Positions 27,099 to 52,317 of a stretch of 64,000 nt of DNA are shown piece after piece (the first letter of the stretch is position 1; every line of letters starts with the position of its first letter). Both the position numbers and the translations under genes were made by a program. The notes below the pieces were generated by a model that was not told the origin of the DNA, ran no database searches, and saw nothing but the letters and a program-made list of their open reading frames with translations. The stretch lies in the sequence record PP919962.1; one strand, given 5' to 3'. Source of the stretch: Klebsiella phage KP2025.

Positions 27099-27108
27099 TG
27101 TCAACTCC

Positions 27109-27333: not shown

Positions 27334-27334
27334 A

Positions 27335-38581: not shown

Positions 38582-38610
38582 TTGACGCGAGGATCACACC
38601 GAGCTATTAT
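38582..38610 (+). promoter_or_regulatory. sigma70-like promoter TTGACG-17-TATTAT
   Basis: upstream of 38663 gene. Confidence 0.5.
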
Positions 38611-38662
38611 TTCCTACACAAGGCGAGGCGATAGGCGCTGCGCGCACTAGGAAGAAAAGAAA

Positions 38663-38884
38663 ATGGCAACATTACACGTCGTAGTTTATAAGCACGCTGT
38701 AACGGGTGATGATATGATCCAGGTGCTTGTTAATGGCTTTTGTGAAATGGAAAGAGAAGGCGATTTTAACGGTTATTGTATTGTGTGTGCTTTCCTTGAT
38801 TCCCTGGTCGAAATGTGCGTGATCACTCACGACCAGCGCGAAGCGAAGATCAACCGCCTGAAAAAACTTTTAGATATCGAATAA
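38663..38884 (+). CDS. hypothetical protein (73 aa)
   Basis: ORF. Confidence 0.5.
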   Translation: MATLHVVVYKHAVTGDDMIQVLVNGFCEMEREGDFNGYCIVCAFLDSLVEMCVITHDQREAKINRLKKLLDIE

Positions 38885-38891
38885 AAACCGC

Positions 38892-38950
38892 TTGACAGAT
38901 TCACACAGTAACGTATAATTCACTTCATAGGCAGCGGGAATGGTTCCCGC
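38892..38950 (+). promoter_or_regulatory. early cassette: TTGACA-16-TATAAT promoter plus leader hairpin GCGGGAA-TGG-TTCCCGC
   Basis: hairpin 38934-38950 ends 23 nt before ATG 38974. Confidence 0.55.
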
Positions 38951-38973
38951 GCCGATACAAAGAGATTAAAATT

Positions 38974-39510
38974 ATGTCTGACATCATCGAAACTTTCAAA
39001 TTCTCCCGTAATAACATCGACTTTACTGTTAATGTAGTATGTGCACAATGTTATGATGGTTTTGGTGATCAATGGAAGATGACCGATACGCACGAGGGCG
39101 GCGTGACTATCAAAAATGCCGACGCCGGGCGGAATAGTTATAAATATGCCATTCCCCAGCAAACTACCCTGGCGGAGCTGGCAAGCTACTACGCTGCACA
39201 AGGGCGAGAAAACCCTAGCCGCGAAGCCTATGAAAGTTTACAGCGGCAATTATCACGAGATATTAACGCAAGTGATTATTATTTCACGGTTGACGCTAGC
39301 GCCGGATCTCATACCCTGTTAGATGGTGCGGTGATCGCTTGCGGGTTCGACTACTCATATGATGATGAGGGATCATTGTTAGACGCCGCCCAGGAAGTGT
39401 GGAAAGAGCACGATGGGGAAGCCGAAGCCCTGGAAGAGGCAACAAAAGCGGCGCGTGTTCTCTTGGAAGCTGTGGATGTGTTGAAAAGTATTGTTGAAAA
39501 CGCGCAATAA
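38974..39510 (+). CDS. hypothetical protein (178 aa, acidic C-terminus)
   Basis: ORF. Confidence 0.55.
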   Translation: MSDIIETFKFSRNNIDFTVNVVCAQCYDGFGDQWKMTDTHEGGVTIKNADAGRNSYKYAIPQQTTLAELASYYAAQGRENPSREAYESLQRQLSRDINASDYYFTVDASAGSHTLLDGAVIACGFDYSYDDEGSLLDAAQEVWKEHDGEAEALEEATKAARVLLEAVDVLKSIVENAQ

Positions 39511-39513
39511 TAC

Positions 39514-39542
39514 TTGACGCGCCCAAAGAAAGGGCGCATAAT
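39514..39542 (+). promoter_or_regulatory. promoter TTGACG-[GCGCCC aaagaaa GGGCGC]-CATAAT with palindromic spacer
   Basis: 17-nt spacer is an inverted repeat. Confidence 0.55.
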
Positions 39543-39572
39543 TCTCCTACACCAACAAAAGAGATTTGAAAA

Positions 39573-39863
39573 ATGAAAATTTCAGAGAACAAAGATTTAA
39601 TTTTCACCGTTAAAAATTATATCCGCCACCCGTATGAATTTGGCGGATATCCGAAAATTTTAATTATGCGTGATGGTAGTTGCCTTTGCTCAAAGTGTAC
39701 GCATGAAAATTTTCCCCGCCTATTGGAAGAATTAAGAGATGAGAGTGATCTAGCATGGATGCCCGCGGACGTGGATGTTTTCTGGGAAGGTGCGGATTTC
39801 CCGTGTGGTAATTGCGGGACTCCGATCCATAGTGCATATGGAGATCCCGAAGAAGAAGAATAA
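39573..39863 (+). CDS. hypothetical Cys-rich protein (96 aa)
   Basis: CLCSKC...CGNCG, acidic tail. Confidence 0.5.
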   Translation: MKISENKDLIFTVKNYIRHPYEFGGYPKILIMRDGSCLCSKCTHENFPRLLEELRDESDLAWMPADVDVFWEGADFPCGNCGTPIHSAYGDPEEEE

Positions 39864-39866
39864 ATA

Positions 39867-39924
39867 TTGACAAGCATCTAAAAGATAATAAACTGTTAAT
39901 CAAAGGGCGGGAATGGTTCCCGCC
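39867..39924 (+). promoter_or_regulatory. early cassette: TTGACA-16-TAAACT promoter plus hairpin GGCGGGAA-TGG-TTCCCGCC
   Basis: near-identical to cassette at 41452. Confidence 0.55.
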
Positions 39925-39944
39925 ACAATAAAGAGAGAAAAATT

Positions 39945-40091
39945 ATGAAACAACGTGTAATGAAAATCCACACCAACACCGGATCAACCGTTGTAACTCC
40001 CTCCCGTTTCGCTATCGCAAGCCGTTGCGCTCGTTTGAAACGTGAGTTAAAATCTAACCAGGGCGCGGGGTTTACCAGATGGGGGAAATAA
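39945..40091 (+). CDS. small basic protein (48 aa) missed by ORF track
   Basis: ATG 21 nt after hairpin; AGAGAGAAAAATT leader. Confidence 0.4.
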   Translation: MKQRVMKIHTNTGSTVVTPSRFAIASRCARLKRELKSNQGAGFTRWGK

Positions 40092-40098
40092 TAACGTA

Positions 40099-40359
40099 AT
40101 GAAGCCACTGTTTTTAAACTGTGAGGGCGAGGTGATCGCCTTCATGGATTCAACAGCCTACGATCTGGCACGGTATGCAATGACGTTTAAAGAGAACGTT
40201 TACAAACGGATTGGCGGCGGATACACTATCTTTAATCATCGTAATGCTGAGGTAAAGGACGTCACAAAGGTCGAGATAGGCAAATATCGGATCGGATGGA
40301 TGCCGTCAAGAGACGCGGCGAGCCTTTACCGTGTTTGCGAGTTAGTAACAAGGGGTTAG
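40099..40359 (+). CDS. hypothetical protein (86 aa)
   Basis: ORF. Confidence 0.5.
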   Translation: MKPLFLNCEGEVIAFMDSTAYDLARYAMTFKENVYKRIGGGYTIFNHRNAEVKDVTKVEIGKYRIGWMPSRDAASLYRVCELVTRG

Positions 40360-40362
40360 CCT

Positions 40363-40911
40363 ATGGGGCGCGAGCATGTTGTACAATCTTGGGTAAAACA
40401 TGATGAGGATGATTGGCGGGTAATACCGCCCCACCTCCTAGAAACTGCCAGCGGATACAGTGGCGAGCAAGTGGGGCAACGTGTAGCCCGTAACAACGGG
40501 AACACGGCGATTCGCGCCACGATTCCTGGTTGGCTGCCAAATGGCCGCGCCGACATTGCAGGGGCGGCAGATCCAGCGGATGAAGCAAAAGGTGATCCGC
40601 TACTGCTAGTAGATCCAGCGTTTAAGACGCTGTTAGAATACCCTAGCAAGGTGGCGGCACTGGAAGCGGCGTATCGGGCGGGTAAATTGCCGGATAGCTT
40701 ATATCGTAGCGCCTTGCGCGTCTTAGACGTGAAAGCAGATAAGGCACAGCGTAAAATTGATAAGCTGATTGGATCTGTCCTCCTGGAGGAAGAGAACGCG
40801 CCGGAGGAAGAGCCGGAGCTTGACCCGGTAGTCCTGGAAGAGGACGCGATCACGCCGTATCATCCTACGCCGGAAGAGGCAGCGCAAGCCCTGCGAAATT
40901 ATTTCAAATAA
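40363..40911 (+). CDS. hypothetical protein (182 aa, acidic Pro/Glu-rich C-terminus)
   Basis: ORF. Confidence 0.5.
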   Translation: MGREHVVQSWVKHDEDDWRVIPPHLLETASGYSGEQVGQRVARNNGNTAIRATIPGWLPNGRADIAGAADPADEAKGDPLLLVDPAFKTLLEYPSKVAALEAAYRAGKLPDSLYRSALRVLDVKADKAQRKIDKLIGSVLLEEENAPEEEPELDPVVLEEDAITPYHPTPEEAAQALRNYFK

Positions 40912-40915
40912 GGGA

Positions 40916-40976
40916 TTGACAAGCGCCCAAGAGGGGCGCATAATTCATCACATAGGGCGGCAATGATGCCGACACC
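40916..40976 (+). promoter_or_regulatory. early cassette: TTGACA-[GCGCCC aagag GGGCGC]-CATAAT plus GGCGGCA-like leader hairpin
   Basis: palindromic spacer; hairpin 40956-40976. Confidence 0.55.
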
Positions 40977-40990
40977 AAAGAGGATAGATT

Positions 40991-41107
40991 ATGTTAATCA
41001 AGAAAGAAAACTGCTTTTTCACTGGTATTATTAATGCGCTGATCCTTTCGGTTCCATTGTGGGTAGTTATCGGTTTTACTTTGTGGTTAGTATCAAAAGC
41101 AGCGTAA
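40991..41107 (+). CDS. small membrane peptide (38 aa) missed by ORF track
   Basis: hydrophobic helix. Confidence 0.35.
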   Translation: MLIKKENCFFTGIINALILSVPLWVVIGFTLWLVSKAA

Positions 41108-41114
41108 AAACTAG

Positions 41115-41175
41115 TTGACAGGCAGATCCAAAGGGTCTAATATTCATATCAAGGCGGGGAGATAGGCGAACCGCC
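41115..41175 (+). promoter_or_regulatory. early cassette: TTGACA-17-TAATAT plus leader hairpin GGCGG...CCGCC
   Basis: upstream of 41197. Confidence 0.5.
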
Positions 41176-41196
41176 AAAGCTGAAAAGGTTAGCATT

Positions 41197-41424
41197 ATGG
41201 CAAAGTCAAAAGGTTTTAACGGTCACAAAAACTGGAATCATTGGAACGTTTCATTATGGATCAATAATGACGAGGGATTATACCGCCTTGCAATGAATTG
41301 CATTTCATCCACTGACAACCGCGACGAAGCCGCCGCCAAAATGTTGCGCAGCGTGAGCAAGAAAACGCCGGACGGCGCACCGTACAGCAAAACCACGATC
41401 CGCGCTGCGATGGTTGGAATGTAG
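41197..41424 (+). CDS. hypothetical protein (75 aa)
   Basis: ORF. Confidence 0.5.
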   Translation: MAKSKGFNGHKNWNHWNVSLWINNDEGLYRLAMNCISSTDNRDEAAAKMLRSVSKKTPDGAPYSKTTIRAAMVGM

Positions 41425-41451
41425 AAAAATCGTCAATCTTATAAAATAAGG

Positions 41452-41507
41452 TTGACAACCTTCTAAAATAAAGTAAACTGTTAATCAAGGCGGGAATAGT
41501 TCCCGCC
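41452..41507 (+). promoter_or_regulatory. early cassette: TTGACA-16-TAAACT plus hairpin GGCGGGAA-TAG-TTCCCGCC
   Basis: paralog of 39867 cassette. Confidence 0.55.
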
Positions 41508-41526
41508 ACAACAAAGAGAGAAAATT

Positions 41527-41688
41527 ATGATTGCCATGAATACTCGCGAAGCCGCTCGCAACGTAGCCCGTAAAGTTAACGCCGTTGCACCTGCTAAATT
41601 GAAAGCACCAGTGAAAGGCGAAAACGGCTGGATCTTCCCTGGCTTGTCTCATGCTGACGGAAAAGGCACCTTGAGCCTGAAAAAATAA
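41527..41688 (+). CDS. small basic protein (53 aa) missed by ORF track
   Basis: ATG 20 nt after hairpin. Confidence 0.4.
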   Translation: MIAMNTREAARNVARKVNAVAPAKLKAPVKGENGWIFPGLSHADGKGTLSLKK

Positions 41689-41689
41689 G

Positions 41690-41726
41690 TTGACTTTTCG
41701 TTATGCCGTGCTATCCTGTACGGCAT
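41690..41726 (+). promoter_or_regulatory. promoter TAAGTTGACTTTTCG...TATCCT with -10 inside palindrome ATGCCGT-N10-ACGGCAT
   Basis: first of three paralogous promoters (41690, 42034, 42290). Confidence 0.5.
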
Positions 41727-41782
41727 AGAGAAAAAGAAACATCCGGCAATAATGCCAAAATCATCAATAAAGGAGATAAACA

Positions 41783-42027
41783 TGACTACTACTAACCTGC
41801 TGAAAACCCCGCGTATCGGTGATTCTGTATTCATTGGTTTTGCCACTAATGGGGACGGCAAAATGGTTAAAGGTGGCGCTGAAATTCCGTTCGATAAGGT
41901 GGCGGCAATCTACGCCGAAACTTCCACCACTAAGGACGGCAAAATCATGCATCATGTACGCACAGCAAGCGGCGACGCCGTTGCAGTGATCGGTTGTTCA
42001 AAAAACTACTGGCACGCTGTTAAATAA
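41783..42027 (+). CDS. hypothetical protein (81 aa)
   Basis: AAGGAG RBS. Confidence 0.5.
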
Positions 42028-42033
42028 ATATCG

Positions 42034-42070
42034 TTGACTTTTCGTTATAGCGTCCTATAATGGGCGCTAT
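42034..42070 (+). promoter_or_regulatory. promoter TTGACT-16-TATAAT with -10 inside palindrome TATAGCG...CGCTATA
   Basis: paralog of 41690. Confidence 0.5.
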
Positions 42071-42108
42071 AGAGAAGAGAAACTAGCCCAACAAAAGAGA
42101 GTAAGAAA

Positions 42109-42282
42109 ATGGAAATTATCGCAGAACTTAGAATAAAAGGTATCGATCCGGTCATTATGACTTATGAGGATCTGCAATATACCGTAACATATGGTGAACA
42201 ATCTGAAACTTACGATTATTACGATGAAGCGGAGCAGGCTTTTAACGCGTTTGCCGAGATTGCCCTAGATGAATATCGTTAA
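42109..42282 (+). CDS. small acidic protein (57 aa) missed by ORF track
   Basis: ORF. Confidence 0.4.
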   Translation: MEIIAELRIKGIDPVIMTYEDLQYTVTYGEQSETYDYYDEAEQAFNAFAEIALDEYR

Positions 42283-42289
42283 AAATAAG

Positions 42290-42326
42290 TTGACTTTCTG
42301 TGATGCCCCTTTATAATAAGGGGCAT
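42290..42326 (+). promoter_or_regulatory. promoter TTGACT-16-TATAAT with -10 in loop of ATGCCCCTT-TATAAT-AAGGGGCAT
   Basis: perfect 9-bp arms flank the -10 hexamer. Confidence 0.55.
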
Positions 42327-42362
42327 TGAAGAGAGAAGACCAACAATCTAACGAGGTGTAAA

Positions 42363-42584
42363 ATGGTTACATTTGCAATTATTTCCCTGGTGGCTGGCAA
42401 CGTGTTTATCAATGATACTTTCGCGGCGGATGATAGCAAGCCAGGAGAAATCAGCACAGCTTATGCAGATTGTAAAGCCGCTGAACGTATGTTATCGCCT
42501 TGCCTGCTGATGAGTGAACGCGAGGACGGGAAAATCGTATTCACCAACGTTGAAACCTGGTATCAATTGGTAGTTGCAAAATAA
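42363..42584 (+). CDS. secreted or membrane small protein (73 aa)
   Basis: N-terminal hydrophobic segment. Confidence 0.5.
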   Translation: MVTFAIISLVAGNVFINDTFAADDSKPGEISTAYADCKAAERMLSPCLLMSEREDGKIVFTNVETWYQLVVAK

Positions 42585-42632
42585 ATTTCATCTGATAGAA
42601 TACTGACATCACTTAAGTAAAAGGGAAATAAT

Positions 42633-42860
42633 ATGAAACGCAAAATCACTATTTCTTATGAGTGGACGCAAGCAGATGGTAGTGAAGTACTGGATCACCA
42701 CAAAGAGTACTTGGAAGAGTCAGCCGATGAGCGTATCCGGGAACAGATTGGAGCAGGTTGTATTAAGGGGCAATTGCTCGACAACATCCACACGCAGGAA
42801 GATCCCGACGACCACGAAGGGACAGAGTATAAAGGTTGGTGGACTTTAATTATCGAGTAA
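42633..42860 (+). CDS. hypothetical protein (75 aa)
   Basis: ORF. Confidence 0.5.
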   Translation: MKRKITISYEWTQADGSEVLDHHKEYLEESADERIREQIGAGCIKGQLLDNIHTQEDPDDHEGTEYKGWWTLIIE

Positions 42861-42947
42861 AATTAGTGGCAAAATAAATTTAGTACTTTATAATACTTAC
42901 CTACAGACAGATAGTCTGTTCTTATTTGACTACAACAGAGTAATGAA

Positions 42948-43100
42948 ATGAATCCTAATCATAAAATGATGATGGAAGCAAGCCGTTTTATCAATAAAAC
43001 AGAAAAAAGAAAATGTTTTGTTTTATGTCTCATAACGCTTGCAATTGGTTTAGCTTGTGTTATTATTACTTACGCTGATTTATCAAATACCACTAAATAA
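42948..43100 (+). CDS. small membrane peptide (50 aa) missed by ORF track
   Basis: ORF. Confidence 0.35.
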   Translation: MNPNHKMMMEASRFINKTEKRKCFVLCLITLAIGLACVIITYADLSNTTK

Positions 43101-43111
43101 GAGATAAGATT

Positions 43112-43468
43112 ATGAATAACATCCTGATCGAGAAACGCGCCGAACTGCTGGAAGTTAAACAGGCTATCTATGCAAAACAGAGGGAGATCCGCAACTTCTC
43201 TTATGAGTCAACTGATGATGAGTATGATTCTTATTTGGATGGATGCTATGGCGATCTTGACGTTTGCGGCAGCACTTTCAGCGCGTCCTATGCTCTTAAA
43301 AACCTTGACCCTACGGCGTACCGTTGCGGCAAGTCAGATTATGACAGCGAAAAAGATCTTGACGATGTGCCGGAGTATGTTACACTCACGGAAGAGCTGG
43401 AAGAGCTGGAAGAGCTGGAAAGCGATCTTGAAAGTGAGATTGAAGAGCTGGAAGAGAGCGAAGAATAA
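43112..43468 (+). CDS. highly acidic protein with LEELEE repeats (118 aa)
   Basis: C-terminus TEELEELEELESDLESEIEELEESEE. Confidence 0.55.
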   Translation: MNNILIEKRAELLEVKQAIYAKQREIRNFSYESTDDEYDSYLDGCYGDLDVCGSTFSASYALKNLDPTAYRCGKSDYDSEKDLDDVPEYVTLTEELEELEELESDLESEIEELEESEE

Positions 43469-43481
43469 TTTTAAAAACAGG

Positions 43482-43537
43482 TTGACACGGTAGACGGTTT
43501 AAAGTAGATTAGTATTCAAGGGGGAGCGGTTCCCCCC
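43482..43537 (+). promoter_or_regulatory. early cassette: TTGACA-17-TAGATT plus hairpin GGGGGA-GCGGT-TCCCCC
   Basis: upstream of 43561. Confidence 0.5.
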
Positions 43538-43560
43538 ACTAACAACAAAGGCGATACATC

Positions 43561-43932
43561 ATGAAATCAGCAGAGAAAATTAAATCTTACATCCTGGCGG
43601 CGATTGATTTTGAAGGTGAGAACGGCAAAACGTTTACCACCGAGGGAGAGAAGATCACCGAACTGATGCGCCGCTTTAAATGTGAATATTGGTATCCAGC
43701 AAATCAGCAGCGCTACGGCACCATGACAAAAGCAATGGCCTCGTGGTTGCAGGGATTGCCGAGTGAAATCGGCATTGCATTCTATTATGATGAGATTGAT
43801 TCTCTTTTGATTGAGTGGGGTTATCTGAAACATACTAGCCGCGAAGCAACAATTGACCGCGAGCGGGATCAATACTGGCTTTATCTGGCAGGTTCACTAA
43901 TGAGCCTTGCGAAGCGGTATAATCTAGCTTGA
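43561..43932 (+). CDS. hypothetical protein (123 aa)
   Basis: ORF. Confidence 0.5.
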   Translation: MKSAEKIKSYILAAIDFEGENGKTFTTEGEKITELMRRFKCEYWYPANQQRYGTMTKAMASWLQGLPSEIGIAFYYDEIDSLLIEWGYLKHTSREATIDRERDQYWLYLAGSLMSLAKRYNLA

Positions 43933-43961
43933 GATTGAATCTGGCATAAGATACACAATAA

Positions 43962-43979
43962 GAGCGGCAGCAATGCCGC
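43962..43979 (+). promoter_or_regulatory. leader hairpin AGCGGCA-GCAA-TGCCGCT (GNRA tetraloop family)
   Basis: upstream of small gene 44009. Confidence 0.5.
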
Positions 43980-44008
43980 TAACATTAAAATAAAACGAGG
44001 GTTTAAAA

Positions 44009-44143
44009 ATGAATGGTAGCCACCACGTCGAAAAAATGGCAAGCGATAAACAGCGAAAAGCATGGGACGATGAAACCGGGCGCAAAGGAGACAAGCGCAA
44101 CAAAACAAAACGAGATCGAAGTCAAAAACGGAATTGGGAATAA
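44009..44143 (+). CDS. small very basic protein (44 aa) missed by ORF track
   Basis: ORF. Confidence 0.35.
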   Translation: MNGSHHVEKMASDKQRKAWDDETGRKGDKRNKTKRDRSQKRNWE

Positions 44144-44145
44144 TA

Positions 44146-44178
44146 AGGAGGGGCGCTGAATGCGCCTCTTTCCGTTTA
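44146..44178 (+). terminator. rho-independent terminator AGGGGCGC-TGAAT-GCGCCTCT + TTCCGTTT
   Basis: GC stem plus T-rich tail. Confidence 0.5.
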
Positions 44179-44260
44179 TACAGCGTTTTCTATAGTGAGC
44201 CATACAAACACCAGGGAGCACCATAAAAACCGCTTAGAACGCATTACAGGAGCTTAGACA

Positions 44261-44443
44261 ATGACATTAGAACAGATTCAAAAGGCACTAGCCCAGGGCG
44301 GCAGACTTTCAGCACGTTACCGTGATCAATGGGGCTTTATCATTAGCGGCGTGATCCTGGCTATTGAGGGCGGCGACCTGCTGATCGATACCCTGAAAAA
44401 CCGAGTGAAGCCGGAGATGGTGATATCTATCAAGTACCTTTGA
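44261..44443 (+). CDS. hypothetical protein (60 aa)
   Basis: leader contains conserved CCGCTTAGAACGCATTACAGGAGCTTAGACA block. Confidence 0.45.
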   Translation: MTLEQIQKALAQGGRLSARYRDQWGFIISGVILAIEGGDLLIDTLKNRVKPEMVISIKYL

Positions 44444-44534
44444 TTGATAGGTTTAAACGATTAGACACTGCATCGATAATGGCACATAGTGAATACATAA
44501 AGCGGGGCAAAGGCCAGCTAGGGGAGGAAACGAA

Positions 44535-44918
44535 ATGAAAAAATTTATCATCGCCGCTATGCTGGCAGCAGTAAGCGCCAGCGCAGCAGCAGACACCGAG
44601 ATCAACGTGATGAGCGCAAGCCGTGATTTACGCGCCAGCATTGAAAAAATGTTAATTGTATCAGGCGATAATAACGCAACGTTACGATCTTACACCTTAT
44701 CAAAAACCTTTGAGGACGCGCTTGATTCTCAAATGATACCTATTCTCAATAATAACCCTGATGCATCATGCGAGCTTATCGCAGCGCGGATCGCGGAAAA
44801 CGGGCGGCAGAACTACGCGCCTTATCAGGTTAACCCACTTATGACAAGGGCTATCGATAATATGATCGGTAAAATGGTTGTTTATACTATGGCGCGGTGT
44901 TATTACTTAAAGGGTTGA
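44535..44918 (+). CDS. secreted protein (127 aa, signal peptide)
   Basis: MKKFIIAAMLAAVSASAAA. Confidence 0.55.
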   Translation: MKKFIIAAMLAAVSASAAADTEINVMSASRDLRASIEKMLIVSGDNNATLRSYTLSKTFEDALDSQMIPILNNNPDASCELIAARIAENGRQNYAPYQVNPLMTRAIDNMIGKMVVYTMARCYYLKG

Positions 44919-44943
44919 CAGGAAGCACTTGATCGATTATCTT
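44915..44943 (+). promoter_or_regulatory. promoter TTGACA-17-TATCTT
   Basis: upstream of 44974. Confidence 0.4.
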
Positions 44944-44973
44944 TAAGCCAGGCAAACAAAAGGGTAAAGAAAA

Positions 44974-45249
44974 ATGATTCAGGCTAACACTTTAATGATG
45001 TTTCAGGAAGTGCAAAACGCCGCTGTAATGGTTGAGCAATTCCAGGACGGCGACACCATGATCGCCACGTTGAAAGAGAACGCCGAAAGCATCCTAATCA
45101 TTAGCTTGAAAACAGTTTCAAAAGGTTACTACTCCCTTGCTTATCATTTCATTACTAATGATGATGAAACAAGCCAGGATTTTTCCTTGCCTTTCCCGGC
45201 AAATTATGCGCCTTCTTTTGTAGCGGCAATTGTTAATGATGTTTTCTAA
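44974..45249 (+). CDS. hypothetical protein (91 aa)
   Basis: ORF. Confidence 0.5.
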   Translation: MIQANTLMMFQEVQNAAVMVEQFQDGDTMIATLKENAESILIISLKTVSKGYYSLAYHFITNDDETSQDFSLPFPANYAPSFVAAIVNDVF

Positions 45250-45532
45250 TGGGTAACGAATAAAGAAAGTCAATAGCTTTTCCAGTTATTTTTCATTTTT
45301 GCGTTATGCAAAAAAGTGAATTTAAAGACTTCTCACGCAAGATGATTAAGGGTATGGCAAACGGTTAGAGCCTCTTAGAATGCGTTTTAGAGCGTTTTAG
45401 AGGGTATTGACTTTTCCCGAAATACTCAAAGCGTCTTAAATTTAGTTTCATCGTGTGATTATTTGCATACGGGTGCATTTCTATGCAATTTAGTGAATAA
45501 TGTAAAAATGCAGAATATTACATTCCTCCCTA

Positions 45533-45598
45533 TTGACTACCGCGCCCAATTTGTTATGATTTATCACATAGGGCGGGGCAATAATGCAGCGCCACAAA
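45533..45598 (+). promoter_or_regulatory. early cassette: TTGACT-16-TATGAT (half-palindromic spacer ACCGCGCCC) plus GGCGGGGCA...GCGCC leader hairpin
   Basis: upstream of ATG 45616. Confidence 0.5.
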
Positions 45599-45615
45599 AT
45601 CCGAAGGATTGCATC

Positions 45616-46074
45616 ATGAATAAATTCTGTGTAGGTCAAAAAGTTATTGATTGTTTCAATGATCGTAAACTGTTAACGATTGTTAAAACTTTTGAATCTG
45701 GTCAAATCGAGCTTGAAAACGGCGTGATCACCTATACGGATCGGGTTCAACGCCAAGAGCATTACCTTGACCATACAAATTACCTGTACCATCATTCTCG
45801 TTTTGGTGATGCTGTATGCATGATCAATGAAGCGTTTCAAGAGTACATTTCAGCACTTGCCGAAATGGGAGATTTATGCTCTTATCCTGGGGAATCTGTT
45901 TTCATAATGAAAGCGCGTACCATGTGCCAAACGTGGATCGACGAAGCCGCCGCGAGGATTGAGCATGGTTTAGCCTGGAAGCGTACAGCAGAACATAATT
46001 TATCACAGTGGTATCGTGTACCGCTTGATCATCACTTCCCATTCCTTAACCCTGAAAATGTGACAGACTACTAA
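45616..46074 (+). CDS. hypothetical protein (152 aa); ORF-track start at 45463 rejected
   Basis: AAGGA RBS 8 nt before ATG 45616; upstream extension would span the promoter. Confidence 0.5.
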   Translation: MNKFCVGQKVIDCFNDRKLLTIVKTFESGQIELENGVITYTDRVQRQEHYLDHTNYLYHHSRFGDAVCMINEAFQEYISALAEMGDLCSYPGESVFIMKARTMCQTWIDEAAARIEHGLAWKRTAEHNLSQWYRVPLDHHFPFLNPENVTDY

Positions 46075-46083
46075 AAAATAGTG

Positions 46084-46143
46084 TTGACAGCGCCCAATAA
46101 AGGGCGCATAATTCATTACATAAGGCGGGGAGTGGTTCCCCGC
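46084..46143 (+). promoter_or_regulatory. early cassette: TTGACA-[GCGCCC aataaa GGGCGC]-CATAAT plus hairpin GCGGGGA-N5-TCCCCGC
   Basis: palindromic spacer promoter class. Confidence 0.55.
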
Positions 46144-46161
46144 TAAATGAGAGATTTAATT

Positions 46162-46386
46162 ATGTTCGATTTAGACAGACTGGCAACAGCGATTGAAAAA
46201 GCAGGTGATGCAAAGTATGGCATCCAAGATCATTACTTTATCGGTCAATATCCTGATGGTACTTACTACGGTGTATTGTCTAATAAAGTGAAAAGCCGTA
46301 GCAGCGCCGCGCAACTGCGAAGCCCGGAATTTTTCGAACAAAAAGGCATTAAAGCGATCAAGGTTATGAAGCGTAAAGCTAAATAA
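46162..46386 (+). CDS. hypothetical basic protein (74 aa; alternative start 46147)
   Basis: ATG 19 nt after hairpin as in sister cassettes. Confidence 0.45.
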   Translation: MFDLDRLATAIEKAGDAKYGIQDHYFIGQYPDGTYYGVLSNKVKSRSSAAQLRSPEFFEQKGIKAIKVMKRKAK

Positions 46387-46388
46387 AT

Positions 46389-46418
46389 TTGACAACGCGC
46401 CCGGTAAGGGCGCATAAT
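46389..46418 (+). promoter_or_regulatory. promoter TTGACA-[ACGCGCCC ggtaa GGGCGC]-ATAAT with palindromic spacer
   Basis: upstream of 46448. Confidence 0.5.
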
Positions 46419-46447
46419 GCTACCAAGTCAATAGCGAGAGCGACAAT

Positions 46448-46684
46448 ATGAAAACGAAAAGCATTCTCATTAACAAAAAATTTCCCAATCGTGTATGGGA
46501 GATCAGCGAAGTGATCAACGCGGGGACGATTGAACAATATAACCGTTTGATCGGGTATATCCGGGAAACTGAATGCGGTTATGTGTGGACTCATTCTGGA
46601 CTAAACCGCGAAAGCGCAAGCTATTTCCCAACAAAACCCCTTGCGCTGGTAGGTTTAAAGCTGGTGCATCAAGATTATAAATAA
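46448..46684 (+). CDS. hypothetical protein (78 aa)
   Basis: ORF. Confidence 0.5.
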   Translation: MKTKSILINKKFPNRVWEISEVINAGTIEQYNRLIGYIRETECGYVWTHSGLNRESASYFPTKPLALVGLKLVHQDYK

Positions 46685-46691
46685 TTTATTT

Positions 46692-46725
46692 CGCCCCGGG
46701 GCTTGATCTCCCTGGGGCGTTTTGC
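46692..46725 (+). terminator. rho-independent terminator CGCCCCGG...CCTGGGGCG + TTTTGCTAT
   Basis: GC stem plus T run. Confidence 0.55.
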
Positions 46726-46740
46726 TATCCTTATTTTGTG

Positions 46741-46759
46741 GGCGGGAATGGTTCCCGAC
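46741..46759 (+). promoter_or_regulatory. leader hairpin GGCGGGAA-TGG-TTCCCGAC
   Basis: 19 nt before ATG 46778. Confidence 0.5.
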
Positions 46760-46777
46760 ACATAACGGGGATTTAAC

Positions 46778-47077
46778 ATGCAACCTTTACAATTACTTTC
46801 CACTTTACGCGCTATCGCCAACAACACTCTGATCGCTTGCCAGCGCCAGGAGTTTAAACCTGAATTCATCTATAAGAATCATAACCAGCAGTTAGCCACA
46901 ATTGAACAGGCAATTAGTGGTTACAAAATGGGGGTAAAGGTTAACGCGAAATATAAAGCGGAGATCAAGAAAATAACGCTTGCACCAATGAAGGAAAAGA
47001 CCTATTATCTAATCAGCGAGCAGGTGAAAGGCGGCGTAAGCCAGTTAACAAGCGCCATAGAATTTATGAAGCGCTAA
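46778..47077 (+). CDS. hypothetical protein (99 aa)
   Basis: ORF. Confidence 0.5.
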   Translation: MQPLQLLSTLRAIANNTLIACQRQEFKPEFIYKNHNQQLATIEQAISGYKMGVKVNAKYKAEIKKITLAPMKEKTYYLISEQVKGGVSQLTSAIEFMKR

Positions 47078-47088
47078 CAATCCAGGAG

Positions 47089-47106
47089 GGCGGCAGCAAT
47101 GCCGCC
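47089..47106 (+). promoter_or_regulatory. leader hairpin GGCGGCA-GCAA-TGCCGCC (GNRA tetraloop)
   Basis: perfect 7-bp stem. Confidence 0.55.
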
Positions 47107-47117
47107 AACAATGAAGA

Positions 47118-47381
47118 ATGAAAAACATCATTTACCGATTGACAAAACGCAACATTCTGATCGCTACTGTGATCGCTTGCCTTTTCGCTTTCGTTAGTAA
47201 CGCAACGTTTAACGCTGTGGGCGGGATGATGTTTAACGCTGGCAACGTTTCAACAGCTAACACAATGATCGACCTTTTGCAACTTTTCTTTTATGTTGCC
47301 TTTCGTTTAAAAATAGCTTGCAAACTGGATCGCTATGATGTACCTTTTATTTGTGGCGGCGTGATAGCTATTGTATGTTAA
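47118..47381 (+). CDS. small membrane protein (87 aa)
   Basis: hydrophobic helix; alternative 28-aa ORF from ATG 47111. Confidence 0.45.
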   Translation: MKNIIYRLTKRNILIATVIACLFAFVSNATFNAVGGMMFNAGNVSTANTMIDLLQLFFYVAFRLKIACKLDRYDVPFICGGVIAIVC

Positions 47382-47395
47382 CCGGAGTAAAAACA

Positions 47396-47688
47396 TGTTA
47401 AGATCTAACAAAAATTTAAAATTACGTCAATCCCTCGTTAATATGGCGATCAGTGTTGAGCCGTACAAACGAAAAGAGCCTAAGCAAGATATGCGAGGAC
47501 GGAAAACAACCTGGACAGATCAACAGGTATTAGAGATCCGGGCCTTACATAAATATGGCGGCATGTTACCCGCCGAAATTGCAGAACGTTACAACACGAC
47601 AAAAGGCGCAATAAATAGCTTGCTTTCTTATGTAACCCGCGTACACTTAGAGCCAGAAAGAAAACATTTACCAGCGAGAGAGGCTTGA
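47396..47688 (+). CDS. putative HTH DNA-binding protein (about 97 aa)
   Basis: GGAG RBS before ATG 47396; LPAEIAERYNTTKGAINSLLS resembles a helix-turn-helix. Confidence 0.4.
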
Positions 47689-47763
47689 CAATAGCAGCGG
47701 GTCTGGTAAAGTGTATCACGTAGGCCGAGGAATAAGCCGAAGCCCGTCAAAGAGGTTAGAAAC

Positions 47764-47961
47764 ATGTTTACTTACTTGCTAATTAATGATTCATCTAATG
47801 AAGTGGTACATACTGATAAACCATCTTTACCGGGTTTTCGTCATTTTGGTAAATATGAAAATTGCAAGCAAATTTCGTGCTTTACTGGAAAGGTCATTTC
47901 CACCGTTGAGGATGATTTGGAAATCCTCACAAAAATTTGTAACTTGCGTTTAACTAAATAG
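47764..47961 (+). CDS. hypothetical protein (65 aa)
   Basis: ORF. Confidence 0.45.
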   Translation: MFTYLLINDSSNEVVHTDKPSLPGFRHFGKYENCKQISCFTGKVISTVEDDLEILTKICNLRLTK

Positions 47962-47963
47962 GA

Positions 47964-48356
47964 ATGATTCTCATGTCCAACTTCGATATCTTTTTAGCGG
48001 CTTATATTGAGGCTATGTTGTGGAGTAGTAGCGGGACAACCCCGGACGGGGAAGATCTGGAAAGTCTGGAAGGGTTCGAACTTTCCACCGAAGCAAAACG
48101 CAAGGCAAAGGAAGAATGCGAACAATTCTTATTTGTATCACAGATCCTTTTCCTGGGGCTGCCTGAATGGTACGGAAAAGGCGACGGCGGGATCTATACT
48201 TATGCGGGGCATGATTTTTGGCTTACTCGCAACGGTCACGGCGCTGGATTCTGGGATCGTGGGCTTGAGGATATAGGCGACCGCTTAACAGAAGTTAGTA
48301 AAACTTTTGGGGAGCTTGATCCATACATTGGCGACGATGGGAAAATTTATTTTTAA
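47964..48356 (+). CDS. hypothetical protein (about 127 aa; start 47964 or 47973)
   Basis: leader contains GAATGATTCTCAT half-palindrome. Confidence 0.5.
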   Translation: MILMSNFDIFLAAYIEAMLWSSSGTTPDGEDLESLEGFELSTEAKRKAKEECEQFLFVSQILFLGLPEWYGKGDGGIYTYAGHDFWLTRNGHGAGFWDRGLEDIGDRLTEVSKTFGELDPYIGDDGKIYF

Positions 48357-48362
48357 AAACGC

Positions 48363-48419
48363 TTGCAACGCTGATCGCCGTTTGCTATAGTTACTTTGAA
48401 GGGCGGGAACTTCTCCCGC
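48363..48419 (+). promoter_or_regulatory. early cassette: TTGCAA-17-TATAGT plus hairpin GCGGGA-ACTTC-TCCCGC
   Basis: upstream of 48442. Confidence 0.55.
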
Positions 48420-48441
48420 TCAATCCTCAAAGGGTAAGAAA

Positions 48442-48705
48442 ATGGAAATCATCCTGGAACGTTACACCGTCAAAGAAACTGGCCTGATCGCTTTCAAACG
48501 TTTGGTAGTGGTTCAAAATGCAAATGGACTCTTTGAGGTTGTTAAAGAAGTTGATTATGGTCGGGGCGCTGGTGTGACAGTGGCAAAGATGCCTATCAAG
48601 CCTTATAAAACCCGTAAGGGCGCAGAAAAGGCGATGCAAGCCTATCAGCCTAAACGCTATCAAATGACCCTAGTCGAGGGTTTAATGATGGAAGGTAAAA
48701 TCTAA
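48442..48705 (+). CDS. hypothetical protein (87 aa)
   Basis: ORF. Confidence 0.5.
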   Translation: MEIILERYTVKETGLIAFKRLVVVQNANGLFEVVKEVDYGRGAGVTVAKMPIKPYKTRKGAEKAMQAYQPKRYQMTLVEGLMMEGKI

Positions 48706-48712
48706 CAATTCA

Positions 48713-48734
48713 GGGGAGCCGCTACGGTTCCCCA
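48713..48734 (+). promoter_or_regulatory. leader hairpin GGGGAGCC-GCTAC-GGTTCCCC
   Basis: 18 nt before ATG 48752. Confidence 0.5.
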
Positions 48735-48751
48735 TCTTTGGAATAATAAAA

Positions 48752-48946
48752 ATGACTAGTAGCGAAGAAATTAGAAAAGCCATAGCTGTTTTACGCTATC
48801 ATAACCGATTAAAGGTTATTAATGACCCTGATTATGTAGGATCAACATTTGAGGCGGATACATTGGACAGTATATCATCGTTAGCAGAGTTACATAAACG
48901 TATGACCGAAAGTAACAGATCGGATTTTATCGGTGGGGAAATATAA
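48752..48946 (+). CDS. hypothetical protein (64 aa)
   Basis: ORF. Confidence 0.45.
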   Translation: MTSSEEIRKAIAVLRYHNRLKVINDPDYVGSTFEADTLDSISSLAELHKRMTESNRSDFIGGEI

Positions 48947-48947
48947 T

Positions 48948-49274
48948 ATGATTATCTTTTGCAACATTCTCAAAAAGTATGTTTTCCAAATGTCAAGTTT
49001 TCGTGTCTATTGGTCTAAGCGTGGACACTACACTGCCAGCAGTAAAGCGGGAGCTATGCCAGGCACTGGAAACGGAGAGATCGAAAGCACAGGAGCCACA
49101 ACAGGAGAGGCCGTTAAAAACTTACATTTAGCCTTGATCCAACGTAGAGCAGCATTGCAAGCCAAAATTGAAGAGGTGGAGGAAGCAATGTATCAAGTCT
49201 CCCGTAATGGATGGAAAGCAGAGGATTTGTTATTGTTACCGAAAGAAGGCGAGATCGGCAGCAAGAAACGCTAA
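48948..49274 (+). CDS. hypothetical protein (108 aa; ATG 48948 preferred over GTG 48933)
   Basis: TAATATG junction with upstream stop. Confidence 0.45.
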   Translation: MIIFCNILKKYVFQMSSFRVYWSKRGHYTASSKAGAMPGTGNGEIESTGATTGEAVKNLHLALIQRRAALQAKIEEVEEAMYQVSRNGWKAEDLLLLPKEGEIGSKKR

Positions 49275-49287
49275 AATCTTTACAATT

Positions 49288-49318
49288 CCAGGGCTTGCTT
49301 TTTGCCCTGGTTTTGCTA
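49288..49318 (+). terminator. rho-independent terminator CCAGGGC-TTGCTTTTT-GCCCTGG + TTTTGCTATT
   Basis: paralog of terminator at 46692. Confidence 0.55.
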
Positions 49319-49353
49319 TTATCTTTTATAGGCGATGGCACCTGATGCAGGGG

Positions 49354-49375
49354 GAGACAAACACCGAACCTGCCT
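49354..49375 (+). repeat. 22-nt repeat GAGACAAACACCGAACCTGCCT (inverted partner of 38042..38063)
   Basis: exact match; second ACCGAACCTGG half-copy 20 nt downstream. Confidence 0.7.
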
Positions 49376-49661
49376 AGCATTCAGGGAAGCTAACCGAACC
49401 TGGACGCCTCCCTTCAAATGAGAATTACTCGCAACAAACATCGTGCCAACTTTACTTTCTAAATGAGAAAAATTCTTATTAGTGAGATCTATTTGTTTAT
49501 GAGCTAGGGTATTGCCAGGACACAAAAGCGCTTAAAATCGATTCTAGAGCGTTTTAAAGGTATGTATGTTTATACAGGACTTGAAAATAAATTTGACAAA
49601 GATTTTATAGTGTGCTATTCGCATATGATTGTTTTCTTTACAGTTCTTTACAAATCTACTC

Positions 49662-49689
49662 TTGCATGAAATATCGGTTATGGTATTAT
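49662..49689 (+). promoter_or_regulatory. promoter TTGCAT-16-TATTAT
   Basis: upstream of 49739; long leader with AGCGTTTTAAAGG motif at 49545. Confidence 0.5.
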
Positions 49690-49738
49690 TTATCTCGTAG
49701 GGCAGGAACACGAAATCAACTTAACGAGGTAAACGAAA

Positions 49739-50107
49739 ATGACTATCATCAATCTGAATACTACTATTAAAGGTAAAGATTTTGGCGGCGTAGTAGATCA
49801 TGATCCGATGTGGTCACTTTCTGTTTTCAAAGGTGATTTAATCGATGTTGTAACCATTGACAGCGGGTCAGATGATTATAAGTGTGAAATTCATCTTACA
49901 AACTGGTACACTGGCAAAGTTTACGCCCTGGATCGCGTGATCATCGGTCGAATCGAAACATTAGAGGACGAAGAAACCGGAGAAACCTTTGATTATTATA
50001 TCAATAGCACTAACCGCGCAGAACGCTTGTTAGAGAAGATGAAAGAAAAAGGAACTATTGATTTATCTCACTGGGTGGACATTACAAACGATCCAGCCTA
50101 CAAATAA
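49739..50107 (+). CDS. hypothetical protein (122 aa)
   Basis: ORF. Confidence 0.55.
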   Translation: MTIINLNTTIKGKDFGGVVDHDPMWSLSVFKGDLIDVVTIDSGSDDYKCEIHLTNWYTGKVYALDRVIIGRIETLEDEETGETFDYYINSTNRAERLLEKMKEKGTIDLSHWVDITNDPAYK

Positions 50108-50118
50108 AACACCATTTC

Positions 50119-50147
50119 AAAGGGGCGCACAAAGCGCCCTTTCTTTT
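50119..50147 (+). terminator. rho-independent terminator AAAGGGGCGC-ACAAA-GCGCCCTTT + CTTTTT
   Basis: 10-bp stem and T run. Confidence 0.65.
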
Positions 50148-51670: not shown

Positions 51671-51766
51671 ATGGAAGCGTTAATGATACTTGGTGCTATA
51701 GTTGTGTTGCTGCTGGTACTATATTTTGCTCCAAGAGATGGTTCAGACTGGGATACATATTTCTAA
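51671..51766 (+). CDS. small membrane peptide (31 aa) missed by ORF track
   Basis: strong RBS AAGGAGAGAAAGATG. Confidence 0.4.
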   Translation: MEALMILGAIVVLLLVLYFAPRDGSDWDTYF

Positions 51767-51780
51767 GAGAGGAGAGTGCA

Positions 51781-51924
51781 ATGACGTATAGAACACGTAC
51801 AGAATGGTTGAAGAAAGGGTTGTATGTCATTCCTCATGCAAAGCCCACTGCTAAGACGAATAAAGGTGAGAGCTTGTTTAAAAGATCTCAGGTGCAATAT
51901 AGTTTCGAAGGGAGAGAGTCATGA
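51781..51924 (+). CDS. small basic protein (47 aa) missed by ORF track
   Basis: GAGAGGAGAGTGCAATG RBS. Confidence 0.4.
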   Translation: MTYRTRTEWLKKGLYVIPHAKPTAKTNKGESLFKRSQVQYSFEGRES

Positions 51925-51973
51925 CAAAGGGTGAAGACGACTATTATGAAAAATTGCTAGAGGAGAGTGTTAA

Positions 51974-52285: not shown

Positions 52286-52317
52286 TAGGCAGTGATCGTC
52301 ATAACAAAGGAGAAATT

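Follow-up and report, generated by a model that had tools for sequence, protein, structure and literature searches.

Klebsiella phage KP2025 (sequence record PP919962.1) carries, within the 64,000-nucleotide stretch of DNA analysed here and called the window, a run of small plus-strand genes whose intergenic spaces resemble one another. Each of the typical spaces combines a promoter, a GC-rich hairpin and a ribosome-binding site, and the question that this locus raises is what these repeated elements are and what they could be doing for the genes that follow them. Our analysis indicates that the array is probably a variable early-gene region made of about 20 diverged copies of one intergenic cassette of 60–95 nucleotides (nt), which would serve both expression and recombination and which has the design of the promoter-early stem-loop (PeSL) elements. 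PeSL cassettes have been described in the T4-like phages RB49/phi1, PST/T4 and nt-1/KVP40 (Arbiol et al. 2010, PMC2839356; Comeau et al. 2014, PMC4122927).

The original prediction, made from the DNA letters, had described about 31 small genes, nearly every one behind a promoter of its own. The gene count held, as 32 plus-strand open reading frames (ORFs) of 38–182 amino acids (aa), numbered g1 to g32, were found between 38663 and 50107. Sigma70-type matches of at least 10/12 number 17 on the plus strand of the array (11.7 kb; 1.45 per kb) and 13 in the other 52 kb (0.25 per kb), so that their density is about six times higher in the array than elsewhere; one of the array promoters is a full 12/12 match. 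When weaker plausible sites (extended -10) are counted, about 19 of the 32 genes have their own promoter. To this extent the claim is right, but it does not apply to the rest, including g5, g6, g15, g26, g28 and g31, which are tightly coupled to the upstream gene. The genes without their own promoter begin 2–14 nt from the preceding stop codon and must be co-transcribed. The 15 nt 5' of the -35 hexamer are 71% A+T (45% A) against about 58% A+T for the window, the stop codon of the upstream gene lies 1–30 nt 5' of the -35 within this A/T-rich tract, and the start region TCAyyACATAGGGCGG is conserved among cassettes. Many near-consensus host-type promoters on ORFans form a classic immediate-early signature, which suggests that these genes may be expressed early by host RNA polymerase. 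The array and its intergenic elements are as follows (+, plus strand; the number between the -35 and -10 hexamers is the spacer length; z compares the fold with shuffled sequences; TGn, extended -10).

38582..50150 (+): whole array, 32 small genes g1–g32 (38663-50107), about 20 intergenic cassettes and 3 T-tract terminators
38582..38662 (+): cassette g1, TTGACG-17-TATTAT, weak leader hairpin 38623-38643 (z -1.04)
38892..38973 (+): cassette g2, perfect TTGACA-16-TATAAT, leader hairpin 38930-38953 GCGGGAATGGTTCCCGC (z -3.70)
39514..39572 (+): cassette g3, TTGACG-17-CATAAT, spacer hairpin GCGCCC-N7-GGGCGC 39519-39537
39867..39944 (+): cassette g4, TTGACA-16-TAAACT, leader hairpin 39906-39924 (z -4.14); paralogue of cassette g9
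40916..40990 (+): cassette g7, TTGACA-17-CATAAT, spacer hairpin 40923-40939, leader hairpin 40955-40976 (z -2.57)
41115..41196 (+): cassette g8, TTGACA-17-TAATAT, leader hairpin 41153-41175 (z -2.35)
41452..41526 (+): cassette g9, TTGACA-16-TAAACT, leader hairpin 41489-41507 (z -5.66)
41690..41781 (+): cassette g10, TTGACT-16-TATCCT (TGn), hairpin 41703-41726 around the -10
42034..42108 (+): cassette g11, TTGACT-16-TATAAT, hairpin 42046-42071 around the -10
42290..42362 (+): cassette g12, TTGACT-16-TATAAT, 9-bp hairpin 42303-42326 with the -10 in the loop
42574..42632 (+): cassette g13, TTGCAA-16-TAGAAT with TGn, promoter only; paralogue of cassette g14 (76%)
42866..42947 (+): cassette g14, GTGGCA-17-TATAAT, weak AT-rich leader hairpin 42903-42919 (z -0.70)
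43482..43560 (+): cassette g16, TTGACA-17-TAGATT, leader hairpin 43520-43536
43963..44008 (+): promoterless hairpin 5' of g17, AGCGGCAGCAATGCCGCT
44915..44973 (+): cassette g20, TTGACA-17-TATCTT, beginning within the end of g19, without a hairpin
45533..45615 (+): cassette g21, TTGACT-16-TATGAT (TGn), half spacer hairpin (GCGCCC only), leader hairpin 45572-45593 (z -1.65)
46084..46161 (+): cassette g22, TTGACA-17-CATAAT, spacer hairpin 46090-46107, leader hairpin 46125-46143 (z -3.62)
46389..46447 (+): cassette g23, TTGACA-18-CATAAT, spacer hairpin 46397-46413
46692..46777 (+): terminator/promoter composite 5' of g24, a 10-bp hairpin 46692-46719 followed by TTTT with TTGATC (-35) in its loop, then TGcTATCCT and a leader hairpin 46743-46757
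47089..47117 (+): promoterless hairpin 5' of g25, GGCGGCAGCAATGCCGCC
47685..47763 (+): cassette g27, TTGACA-16-TAAAGT (TGn), hairpin not significant (z 0.24)
48363..48441 (+): cassette g29, TTGCAA-17-TATAGT (TGn), leader hairpin 48403-48419 (z -3.28)
48711..48751 (+): promoterless hairpin 5' of g30
49288..49322 (+): second terminator/promoter composite, hairpin 49288-49310 followed by TTTT with TTGCTT in its loop, then TGcTATTAT
50120..50150 (+): T-tract terminator closing the array after g32

With a perfect hairpin defined as a stem of at least 6 bp with at least 4 G-C pairs, the block contains 18 perfect GC-rich hairpins against 3.9 ± 1.9 in shuffles (4.6-fold), and 16 of the 18 fall within the intergenic 25% of the block. 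Promoters with an attached hairpin number 10 in the array, the value in shuffles being 0.09 ± 0.35. These figures bear on an alternative, namely that the genes form ordinary small-gene operons and that the promoter-like and hairpin-like matches are due to chance or composition. Consensus scans are indeed permissive (58 promoter-like sites against 33 ± 5 in shuffles), and 13 genes are without a convincing promoter. However, this alternative is refuted at the level of sequence statistics, and it has to contend with the excess of promoter-hairpin composites, with the paralogous repeat families, with the covarying stems and with element positions which are conserved across seven loci of two subfamilies; we regard it as highly improbable. 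Outside the array only two composites of the same design were found, both on the minus strand, at 12803 and 6845. These promoters of the metabolism module have a G-arm-first hairpin 10–13 nt after the -10 (GAGGGAGATAGGCTCCCTC, GGGGAGAGATGGCTCTCCCC), and since they share the design, the cassette type is not confined to the array.

For the window and for seven related loci of two subfamilies, hairpin position was measured relative to the end of the -10 hexamer. In the downstream or leader class (g2, g4, g7–g9, g16, g21, g22, g24 and g29) the hairpin starts at +9 to +14 from the end of the -10, which is about +3 to +7 of the predicted start site, and ends 11–28 nt 5' of the ATG; the leader hairpins of the array begin 9–13 nt after the hexamer. 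This agrees with what had been claimed earlier, that the hairpin stands just after the predicted start and shortly before the start codon. In the spacer class (g3, g7, g22 and g23) it starts at -22 to -24, within the spacer between -35 and -10, and is nearly always GCGCCC-N5-7-GGGCGC directly 5' of ATAAT. In a third class (g10–g12) it starts at -15 to -17 with the -10 hexamer enclosed by the stem, as in ATGCCCCTT-TATAAT-AAGGGGCAT. A fourth position, over the -35, is seen in the composites at 46692 and 49288. The spacer and -10-enclosing classes were overlooked in the original prediction, as was the central point, the PeSL-type nature of the cassettes and their second role as crossover sites in gene shuffling.

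The same prediction had placed a 5' hairpin before most genes. When 19 predicted leaders were folded and compared with shuffles, it was found that seven fold well beyond them (g2, g4, g7, g8, g9, g22 and g29; z -2.35 to -5.66), four are borderline (g1, g10, g16 and g21) and eight are without leader structure, so the statement applies to the first group and not to the last. Three genes, g17, g25 and g30, have a hairpin without a promoter, and g7 and g22 have a spacer hairpin and a leader hairpin each. The G-rich arm is always 5' on the coding strand: 5' arms are 67% G (14% on the other arm) and 3' arms are 67% C. The leader that follows the hairpin, CACAACAAAGAGAG...ATG, is conserved and 50% A.

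The main rival of the reading that we prefer is the first proposal of the PeSL authors, that the stem-loops are attenuators or terminators. If all hairpins of the array were of this kind, they would dampen polymerases coming from upstream, each gene would be mainly self-driven and the position of the hairpin relative to the start would be incidental. One RB49 PeSL stem-loop cut lacZ as much as rrnB T1 did (PMC2839356), and in the array nearly each long intergenic space has one G-arm-first hairpin at whatever promoter position, the spacer and -10 hairpins being transcribable from upstream only. However, the T tract of an intrinsic terminator is missing, with a mean of 1.65 T in the 8 nt 3' of the cassette hairpins, though canonical terminators do exist in the array. 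A GC hairpin followed by a T tract (TTTT) was found at 46692, 49288 and 50120 only, and the cassette hairpins do not qualify; the first two of these terminators (46692-46719 and 49288-49310) have a -35-like hexamer in the loop and a TGn extended -10 after it. It should also be noted that the two hairpins each of g7 and g22 would be redundant under a single function, and that a terminator in the leader would also stop the transcripts of its own promoter. We consider the attenuator account possible but rather doubtful. The window as a whole gave no match to Rfam at the gathering threshold and no tRNA in a tRNA scan. As for known types of hairpin site, T7-type RNase III sites were ruled out, the cassette stems of just 6–9 bp being too short for them, and lambda boxB-type sites were ruled out as the loops are unconserved among the cassette hairpins.

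The array was compared with its relatives by megablast, with 38880-49400 as the query. The matches are Klebsiella myophages of 137–150 kb. KP13-26 covers 90% of the query at 93.6% identity, and coverage is 56% for FKP3, 57% for phi1_175008, 35% for vB_KpM_FBKp34 and 23% for KP13-16; the records of all five are filed under Stephanstirmvirinae. The source is a Klebsiella myophage of this subfamily, and the array would be its variable, presumably early, gene region. The same cassette anatomy is also present in the early regions of FV3 and of the Mydovirus KpS8, which are Vequintavirinae.

Within the array the cassettes are paralogous, as had been proposed. Cassettes g4 and g9 are 86% identical over one segment (39867-39903 against 41452-41488) and 94% over another (39906-39941 against 41489-41524), and the cassettes at 41689, 42033 and 42289 form one family. 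Repeat finding recovered 7–8 copies of the hairpin with its leader, 4–5 copies of the promoter with a spacer hairpin and three copies of the TTGACTTT promoter. The description of the layout as modular is supported. The stems are kept paired through compensatory changes. For the class with the -10 in the loop, RNAalifold predicted 16 pairs, and 10 of the 16 have two-sided changes that keep the pair. In the otherwise identical cassette g12 a C-G pair in the window and phi1_175008 is T-A in FBKp34 and FKP3. Orthologous g16 sites have GGGGGA/TCCCCC or GCGGGA/TCCCGC, both paired, with the same promoter and gene; at the same site g29 has three types of stem and g17 two, all paired, the g17 hairpin AGCGGCAGCAATGCCGCT being replaced by GGCGGGAACTTCCCGCC in FKP3 and phi1_175008. 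For the spacer-hairpin class RNAalifold gave no consensus structure, as differences in loop length shift the left arms out of register, and an alignment of 33 leaders likewise gave no single consensus structure because loop lengths differ. An arm-swap test was used instead, in which the native arms of 24 leader hairpins, themselves selected for being hairpins, gave -12.7 kcal/mol against -6.9 ± 3.0 for swapped arms. It is pairing that is conserved rather than sequence.

This observation bears on the possibility that the hairpins, as RNA or as DNA, are bound by a phage protein and serve for example as a nut/boxB-like antitermination site, a site for a translational repressor, or an operator closing early promoters at the middle phase. 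Sequence families do recur (CGGGAAtgGTTCCCG and GGCGGCAgcAATGCCGCC), the spacer hairpins are nearly all GCGCCC...GGGCGC, and the array itself encodes g26, a small basic protein with a helix-turn-helix-like region and a weak match to PHROG 323. However, the 24 leader hairpins comprise 20 distinct stems and about 20 loops, the spacer loops vary from 5 to 7 nt, and relatives hold other stems at the spacer position (TAGCCCC/GGGGCTA in phi1_175008 and GGCC/GGCC in KpS8), so that a protein-binding role looks improbable.

A scan of IMG/VR with CGGGAATGGTTCCCG returned 103 single scattered matches, which by our own estimate is about chance for a 15-mer and is uninformative on distribution. The alignments with relatives show that cassettes are points at which single genes or short runs of genes were deleted, inserted or replaced. 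Homology-block boundaries inside the array were determined by blastn against the five relatives, and 66 of 86 (35 of 49 distinct positions) are intergenic or no more than 6 nt from a gene end, against 26.8% expected. In KP13-16 the end of g3 and the left half of cassette g4 are joined to the right half of cassette g9 and the start of g9, and g4–g8 are missing. In FBKp34 the end of g9 is joined to cassette g12 within AAAAATAAGTTGACTTT, g10–g11 are missing and cassette g10 is the left parent. FKP3 is without g2–g3, with cassette g2 as the left junction and an overlap of 20 nt that falls on the hairpin GCGGGAATGGTTCCCGC. KP13-26 carries an insertion of 340 nt at cassette g14, flanked by a 27-nt duplication of the cassette (42881-42908), a second insertion of about 500 nt directly 3' of the -10 of cassette g23 (46418), and replacements bounded by 42083/42282 and by 48409/49275, the latter comprising g29–g31 with its left edge in cassette g29. 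A unit running from the g25 hairpin (47087) to the g25 stop codon (47382) shares about 90% identity with E. coli Vequintavirus phages, e.g. FV3 and PD06, which by megablast have no other match in the array; the FV3 alignment shows homology starting exactly at the hairpin and running as far as the stop codon.

Such junctions could mean that the hairpins work at the level of DNA, either by forming cruciforms or by being recognised by a recombinase or nuclease that is structure-specific and dedicated to them, in which case the cassettes would be truly mobile and expression secondary. In FKP3, in g25 against FV3 and in KP13-26 at 48409 the junctions are in or at the edge of hairpins, the cassettes are common to two phage subfamilies, and PeSL mini-circles have been reported in RB49 (PMC2839356). 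However, the orientation of the G-rich arm points to a strand-specific role at the transcript level. Two of the three chimeric junctions, those of KP13-16 and FBKp34, are in ordinary homology outside the stem (-35 region, leader), and no recombinase was found among the 30 of 32 array products scanned against Pfam and PHROGs. We therefore take action in DNA to be unlikely. There is likewise a small chance that the G-arm-first stem-loops are not just passive homology patches but are recognised by a dedicated mechanism, in which a structure-specific enzyme acts on them or mini-circles form and re-insert. If this were true, the hairpin-to-stop units would be mobile gene cassettes circulating between Klebsiella Stephanstirmvirinae and E. 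coli Vequintavirinae, and lytic phages would have an integron-like system of gene exchange.

The reading that we prefer, an expression and recombination cassette of PeSL design, would work as follows. A full cassette opens with an A-rich tract including the upstream stop codon, followed by a strong sigma70-type promoter and then by a GC stem-loop with a G-rich 5' arm; next comes a leader that is A-rich and unstructured, and the cassette closes with an AAGAG-type Shine-Dalgarno sequence and the ATG. Host RNA polymerase would transcribe each gene separately right after infection. A hairpin at about +3 to +7 would give the mRNA a base-paired 5' end, which may slow 5'-end-dependent decay by RppH and RNase E, and the leader hairpin could keep the translation start region uniform whatever ORF follows. 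Hairpins internal to the promoter (spacer, -10, -35) would exist only in read-through RNA, where they might cap or attenuate the upstream transcript. The 20–80 nt of sequence shared between cassettes could be playing the part of a homology patch for phage recombination, so that crossovers would move whole genes which can still be expressed.

Several points weigh against this reading. Promoter use, start sites and timing are predictions; about 19 of the 32 genes have a promoter and only 7–11 leaders fold clearly beyond shuffles; and the arm-swap set was chosen as hairpins. The strong terminator-like activity of an RB49 PeSL stem-loop (PMC2839356) favours attenuation over 5' stabilisation, and the fixed hairpin positions could come from common descent instead of positional selection. 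Any mosaic region under selection would be expected to have its boundaries at gene ends. The promoter-poor block at 52.3–64 kb is just as variable between relatives (coverage 70/50/36% against 90/57/56% for the array) and therefore cassettes are not needed for gene turnover. Overall, what had been noticed at this locus is real and statistically solid, but it was overstated in the words 'nearly every gene' and 'most'.

The products of the array were examined next to their control regions. Many had been called acidic, Cys-rich, membrane or secreted, and the acidic, membrane and secreted character is confirmed: 11 of the 32 have an isoelectric point (pI) of 5 or less, three are hydrophobic and two resemble signal peptides. 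The Pfam and PHROGs scans cover 30 of the 32 products (all but g27 and g30). The claim that none has a recognisable domain is nearly right, as the only Pfam matches are DUF7249 (g8), DUF7177 (g10), Phage_1_1 (g17) and Phage_30_8 (g32), each a family of unknown function. All PHROG matches are labelled 'unknown function' except two, a 'DNA ligase' label on g3 and the weak regulator match of g26. The genes of note are as follows.

38974..39510 (+): g2, 178 aa, pI 4.3, behind the 12/12 promoter; AlphaFold model matching no known fold
44009..44143 (+): g17, 44 aa, basic; Pfam Phage_1_1 (T7 gp1.1 family)
47118..47381 (+): g25, 87-aa hydrophobic protein; about 90% nucleotide identity to the rV5-like coliphages FV3 and PD06
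49739..50107 (+): g32, 122 aa; Pfam Phage_30_8 (T4 gp30.8 family)

T7 gp1.1 and T4 gp30.8 are products of early genes in T7 and T4. The gene g2 is the first behind the sole perfect 12/12 promoter of the plus strand and has 98 homologues, many of them encoded on contigs of about 140–157 kb. Sequence searches of the PDB with g2, g6, g21 and g28 found no relative. Structure prediction, which had been proposed for the products, gave confident AlphaFold models for g2 and g28 (predicted local distance difference test, pLDDT, 93.5 and 95.2), but fold searches against solved structures gave no match for either (best E 0.05, template modelling score below 0.3). The acidic 127-aa g28 (47973-48356) belongs to a very large unnamed family, with 6545 database proteins at E ≤ 0.001, without a Pfam domain and with AGHDFWLTRNGHGAGFWDR as its near-invariant motif. 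The cysteine-rich 96-aa g3 (39573-39863) has about 90% nucleotide identity to genes of the Klebsiella Vequintavirinae KpS8 and KNP2; its 'DNA ligase' label, found in PHROG 18452 and in several records, is implausible for a protein of 96 aa and is doubtful. In g15 (118 aa, pI 4.1) a 9-nt tandem repeat, GAAGAGCTG, at 43391-43464 encodes an acidic (EEL)n tail.

The array had been put forward as the most promising part of the window for a search for anti-defence genes, and this is doubtful. No Pfam or PHROGs match to known anti-defence proteins (Ocr, Ard, Tad, Acb, Gad, Atd1 and others) was found among the 30 scanned products. Neither did g2, g6, g21 and g28 match such proteins by PDB sequence search, nor g2 and g28 by fold. 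An anti-defence function for array genes is a guess. Genes outside the array, in the module at 1–32 kb, are better founded as candidates than the array products:

13398-14726 and 25887-28402 (minus strand): genes for a Macro domain, a ComF-like phosphoribosyltransferase (PRTase), a PnuC transporter of nicotinamide mononucleotide (NMN) and a NadR-like protein (Pfam)

It is plausible that these genes of NAD (nicotinamide adenine dinucleotide) salvage and ADP-ribose (adenosine diphosphate ribose) metabolism act in counter-defence. The sole published anti-defence gene of the subfamily, the MazG-like Atd1, was found beside methyltransferase and NAD-biosynthesis genes (bioRxiv 10.1101/2022.06.09.495361), and the MazG-like genes annotated in phi1_175008 sit in the corresponding metabolism module. 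No MazG-like gene was confirmed in the window, where two positional counterparts gave no Pfam match.

The surroundings of the array were mapped from Pfam and from the annotation of one relative.

1-32 kb (minus strand): replication and nucleotide-metabolism module (relative's annotation, Pfam)
32-37.5 kb (+): genes upstream of the array
50.15-52.3 kb: AT-rich non-coding DNA (GC 0.35), about 2.1 kb
52.3-64 kb (+): tightly packed genes after the AT-rich gap, operon-like, with few promoters

Local GC content had been said to exceed that of the rest of the window. This is so at 38–42 kb (0.446–0.485) but not at 42–50 kb, where it is 0.41–0.425 and equals the remainder. Just 5' of the array, at 35348-36472, is a gene for a 374-aa AAA/STAND-like ATPase (AAA, nSTAND3 and NACHT-like matches), which is unusual in a lytic phage. 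A perfect minus-strand promoter, TTGACA-18-TATAAT at 38276-38247, is aimed at small minus-strand genes at 37.8–38.5 kb; together with the first array promoter (38582) it forms a divergent promoter region and itself faces away from the array. The AT-rich gap at 50150-52300 has no convincing ORF and contains short tandem repeats of 8–11 nt. By extrapolation of coordinates FKP3 and phi1_175008 have the start or end of their linear records near it, and the gap may represent a genome terminus or correspond to the 'non-coding' box of rV5.

Some non-coding sequences within the array are also of interest. The 464-nt non-coding stretch at 49275-49738, which faces the 49288 composite, is 97% identical to FBKp34 and KP13-26, the flanking genes being 92–93% identical. 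At 49329-49560 the predicted fold is no better than that of shuffles (z -0.49), and a structured RNA is unsupported there. The 367-nt non-coding gap before g21 (45250-45615) holds 3.6 tandem copies of TTAGAGCGTT at 45365-45402, which may be a protein-binding array, and a related copy (80%) of this repeat is present at 49531-49560. A 29-nt direct repeat, AARCCGCTTAGAAYG..TTACAGGAGCTT (86% identity), occurs at 44227-44255, just before g18, and at 50263-50291, just after the closing terminator.

If the preferred reading is right, the range of PeSL-type cassettes would grow beyond the T4-like phages by two further subfamilies of large enterobacterial myoviruses. It would explain why, among the therapeutic phages of these groups against Klebsiella and E. 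coli, the differences are mainly in small early ORFans, which would be ready-to-express units swapped at repeated linkers. The cassettes could also serve as a sequence marker for probable immediate-early genes and for the edges of exchangeable units, and such a marker would help in picking candidates for host-takeover or anti-defence screens. The natural range of hairpin positions offers a ready test set for the effects of stem-loops on initiation, read-through and mRNA stability.

The array can be compared with several known systems. Like morons and integron cassettes, its units are single genes gained and lost between conserved flanks; morons have their own promoter and terminator but are without a repeated linker, and integron cassettes require attC sites and an integrase, neither of which is present in the array. 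In the 5' untranslated region of ompA, an E. coli mRNA stabiliser, a stable hairpin lies a few nt from the 5' end and is followed by an unstructured ribosome-binding region. The likeness to the leader-hairpin cassettes is functional only, the start sites of the array being predicted, and the unpaired 5' tail predicted here, about 2–6 nt, is at or beyond the length reported to be still protective. The host-takeover module of Bacillus phage SPO1 and the early regions of T4, T5 and T7 contain many small phage-unique genes with strong host-type promoters, which are expressed first, are mostly dispensable and have a presumed role in host takeover or defence. Measured expression and phenotypes define those modules, and the SPO1 units are short operons with terminators. 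The array shares with them a cluster of small ORFans behind host-type promoters, its early expression being predicted; it differs from SPO1 in consisting of repeated promoter/hairpin cassettes, and no sequence homology to these systems was found except for the T7 gp1.1 and T4 gp30.8 families.

The closest likeness is to the PeSLs themselves. In both, a near-consensus sigma70 promoter is preceded by an A/T-rich tract including the upstream stop codon, the stem-loop is a G run followed by a C run, and a Shine-Dalgarno sequence and ATG close the element. In both the stem-loop may stand in the spacer, over either promoter hexamer or downstream of the -10, PeSLs having five positional subclasses. 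Both lie between small ORFans in variable regions (hyperplastic in the case of PeSLs), the elements being rare outside the array here; both include degraded 'half' copies, represented here by the spacer hairpin of g21; and in both, close relatives differ by indels and replacements whose crossovers fall within the cassettes, for PeSLs in or next to the stem-loop. There are differences as well. The commonest class here has its hairpin after the predicted start, in the 5' leader, whereas phi1 and RB49 are dominated by the spacer and -10 positions. The array also has double-hairpin cassettes (g7 and g22) and two composites of a T-tract terminator and an extended -10. The published PeSL description also includes measured promoter and terminator activity and excised mini-circles; the promoters of the array are predicted ones. 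PeSLs belong to T4-like myoviruses and the array to Stephanstirmvirinae, with further examples in the Vequintavirinae FV3 and KpS8; the T4-like lineage is a limit of where PeSLs are described and not a mechanistic criterion. In our literature searches such cassettes were described in T4-like phages only, and for rV5-like and Stephanstirmvirinae phages lists of predicted promoters alone were found: the rV5 paper lists 33 predicted promoters and no cassettes (PMC3606486), and the FBKp34 record and preprint give promoters predicted by software only. On the comparisons made here, the array is best explained as PeSL-type cassettes in a lineage without an earlier description of them, that is, as a known kind of system and not a new kind.

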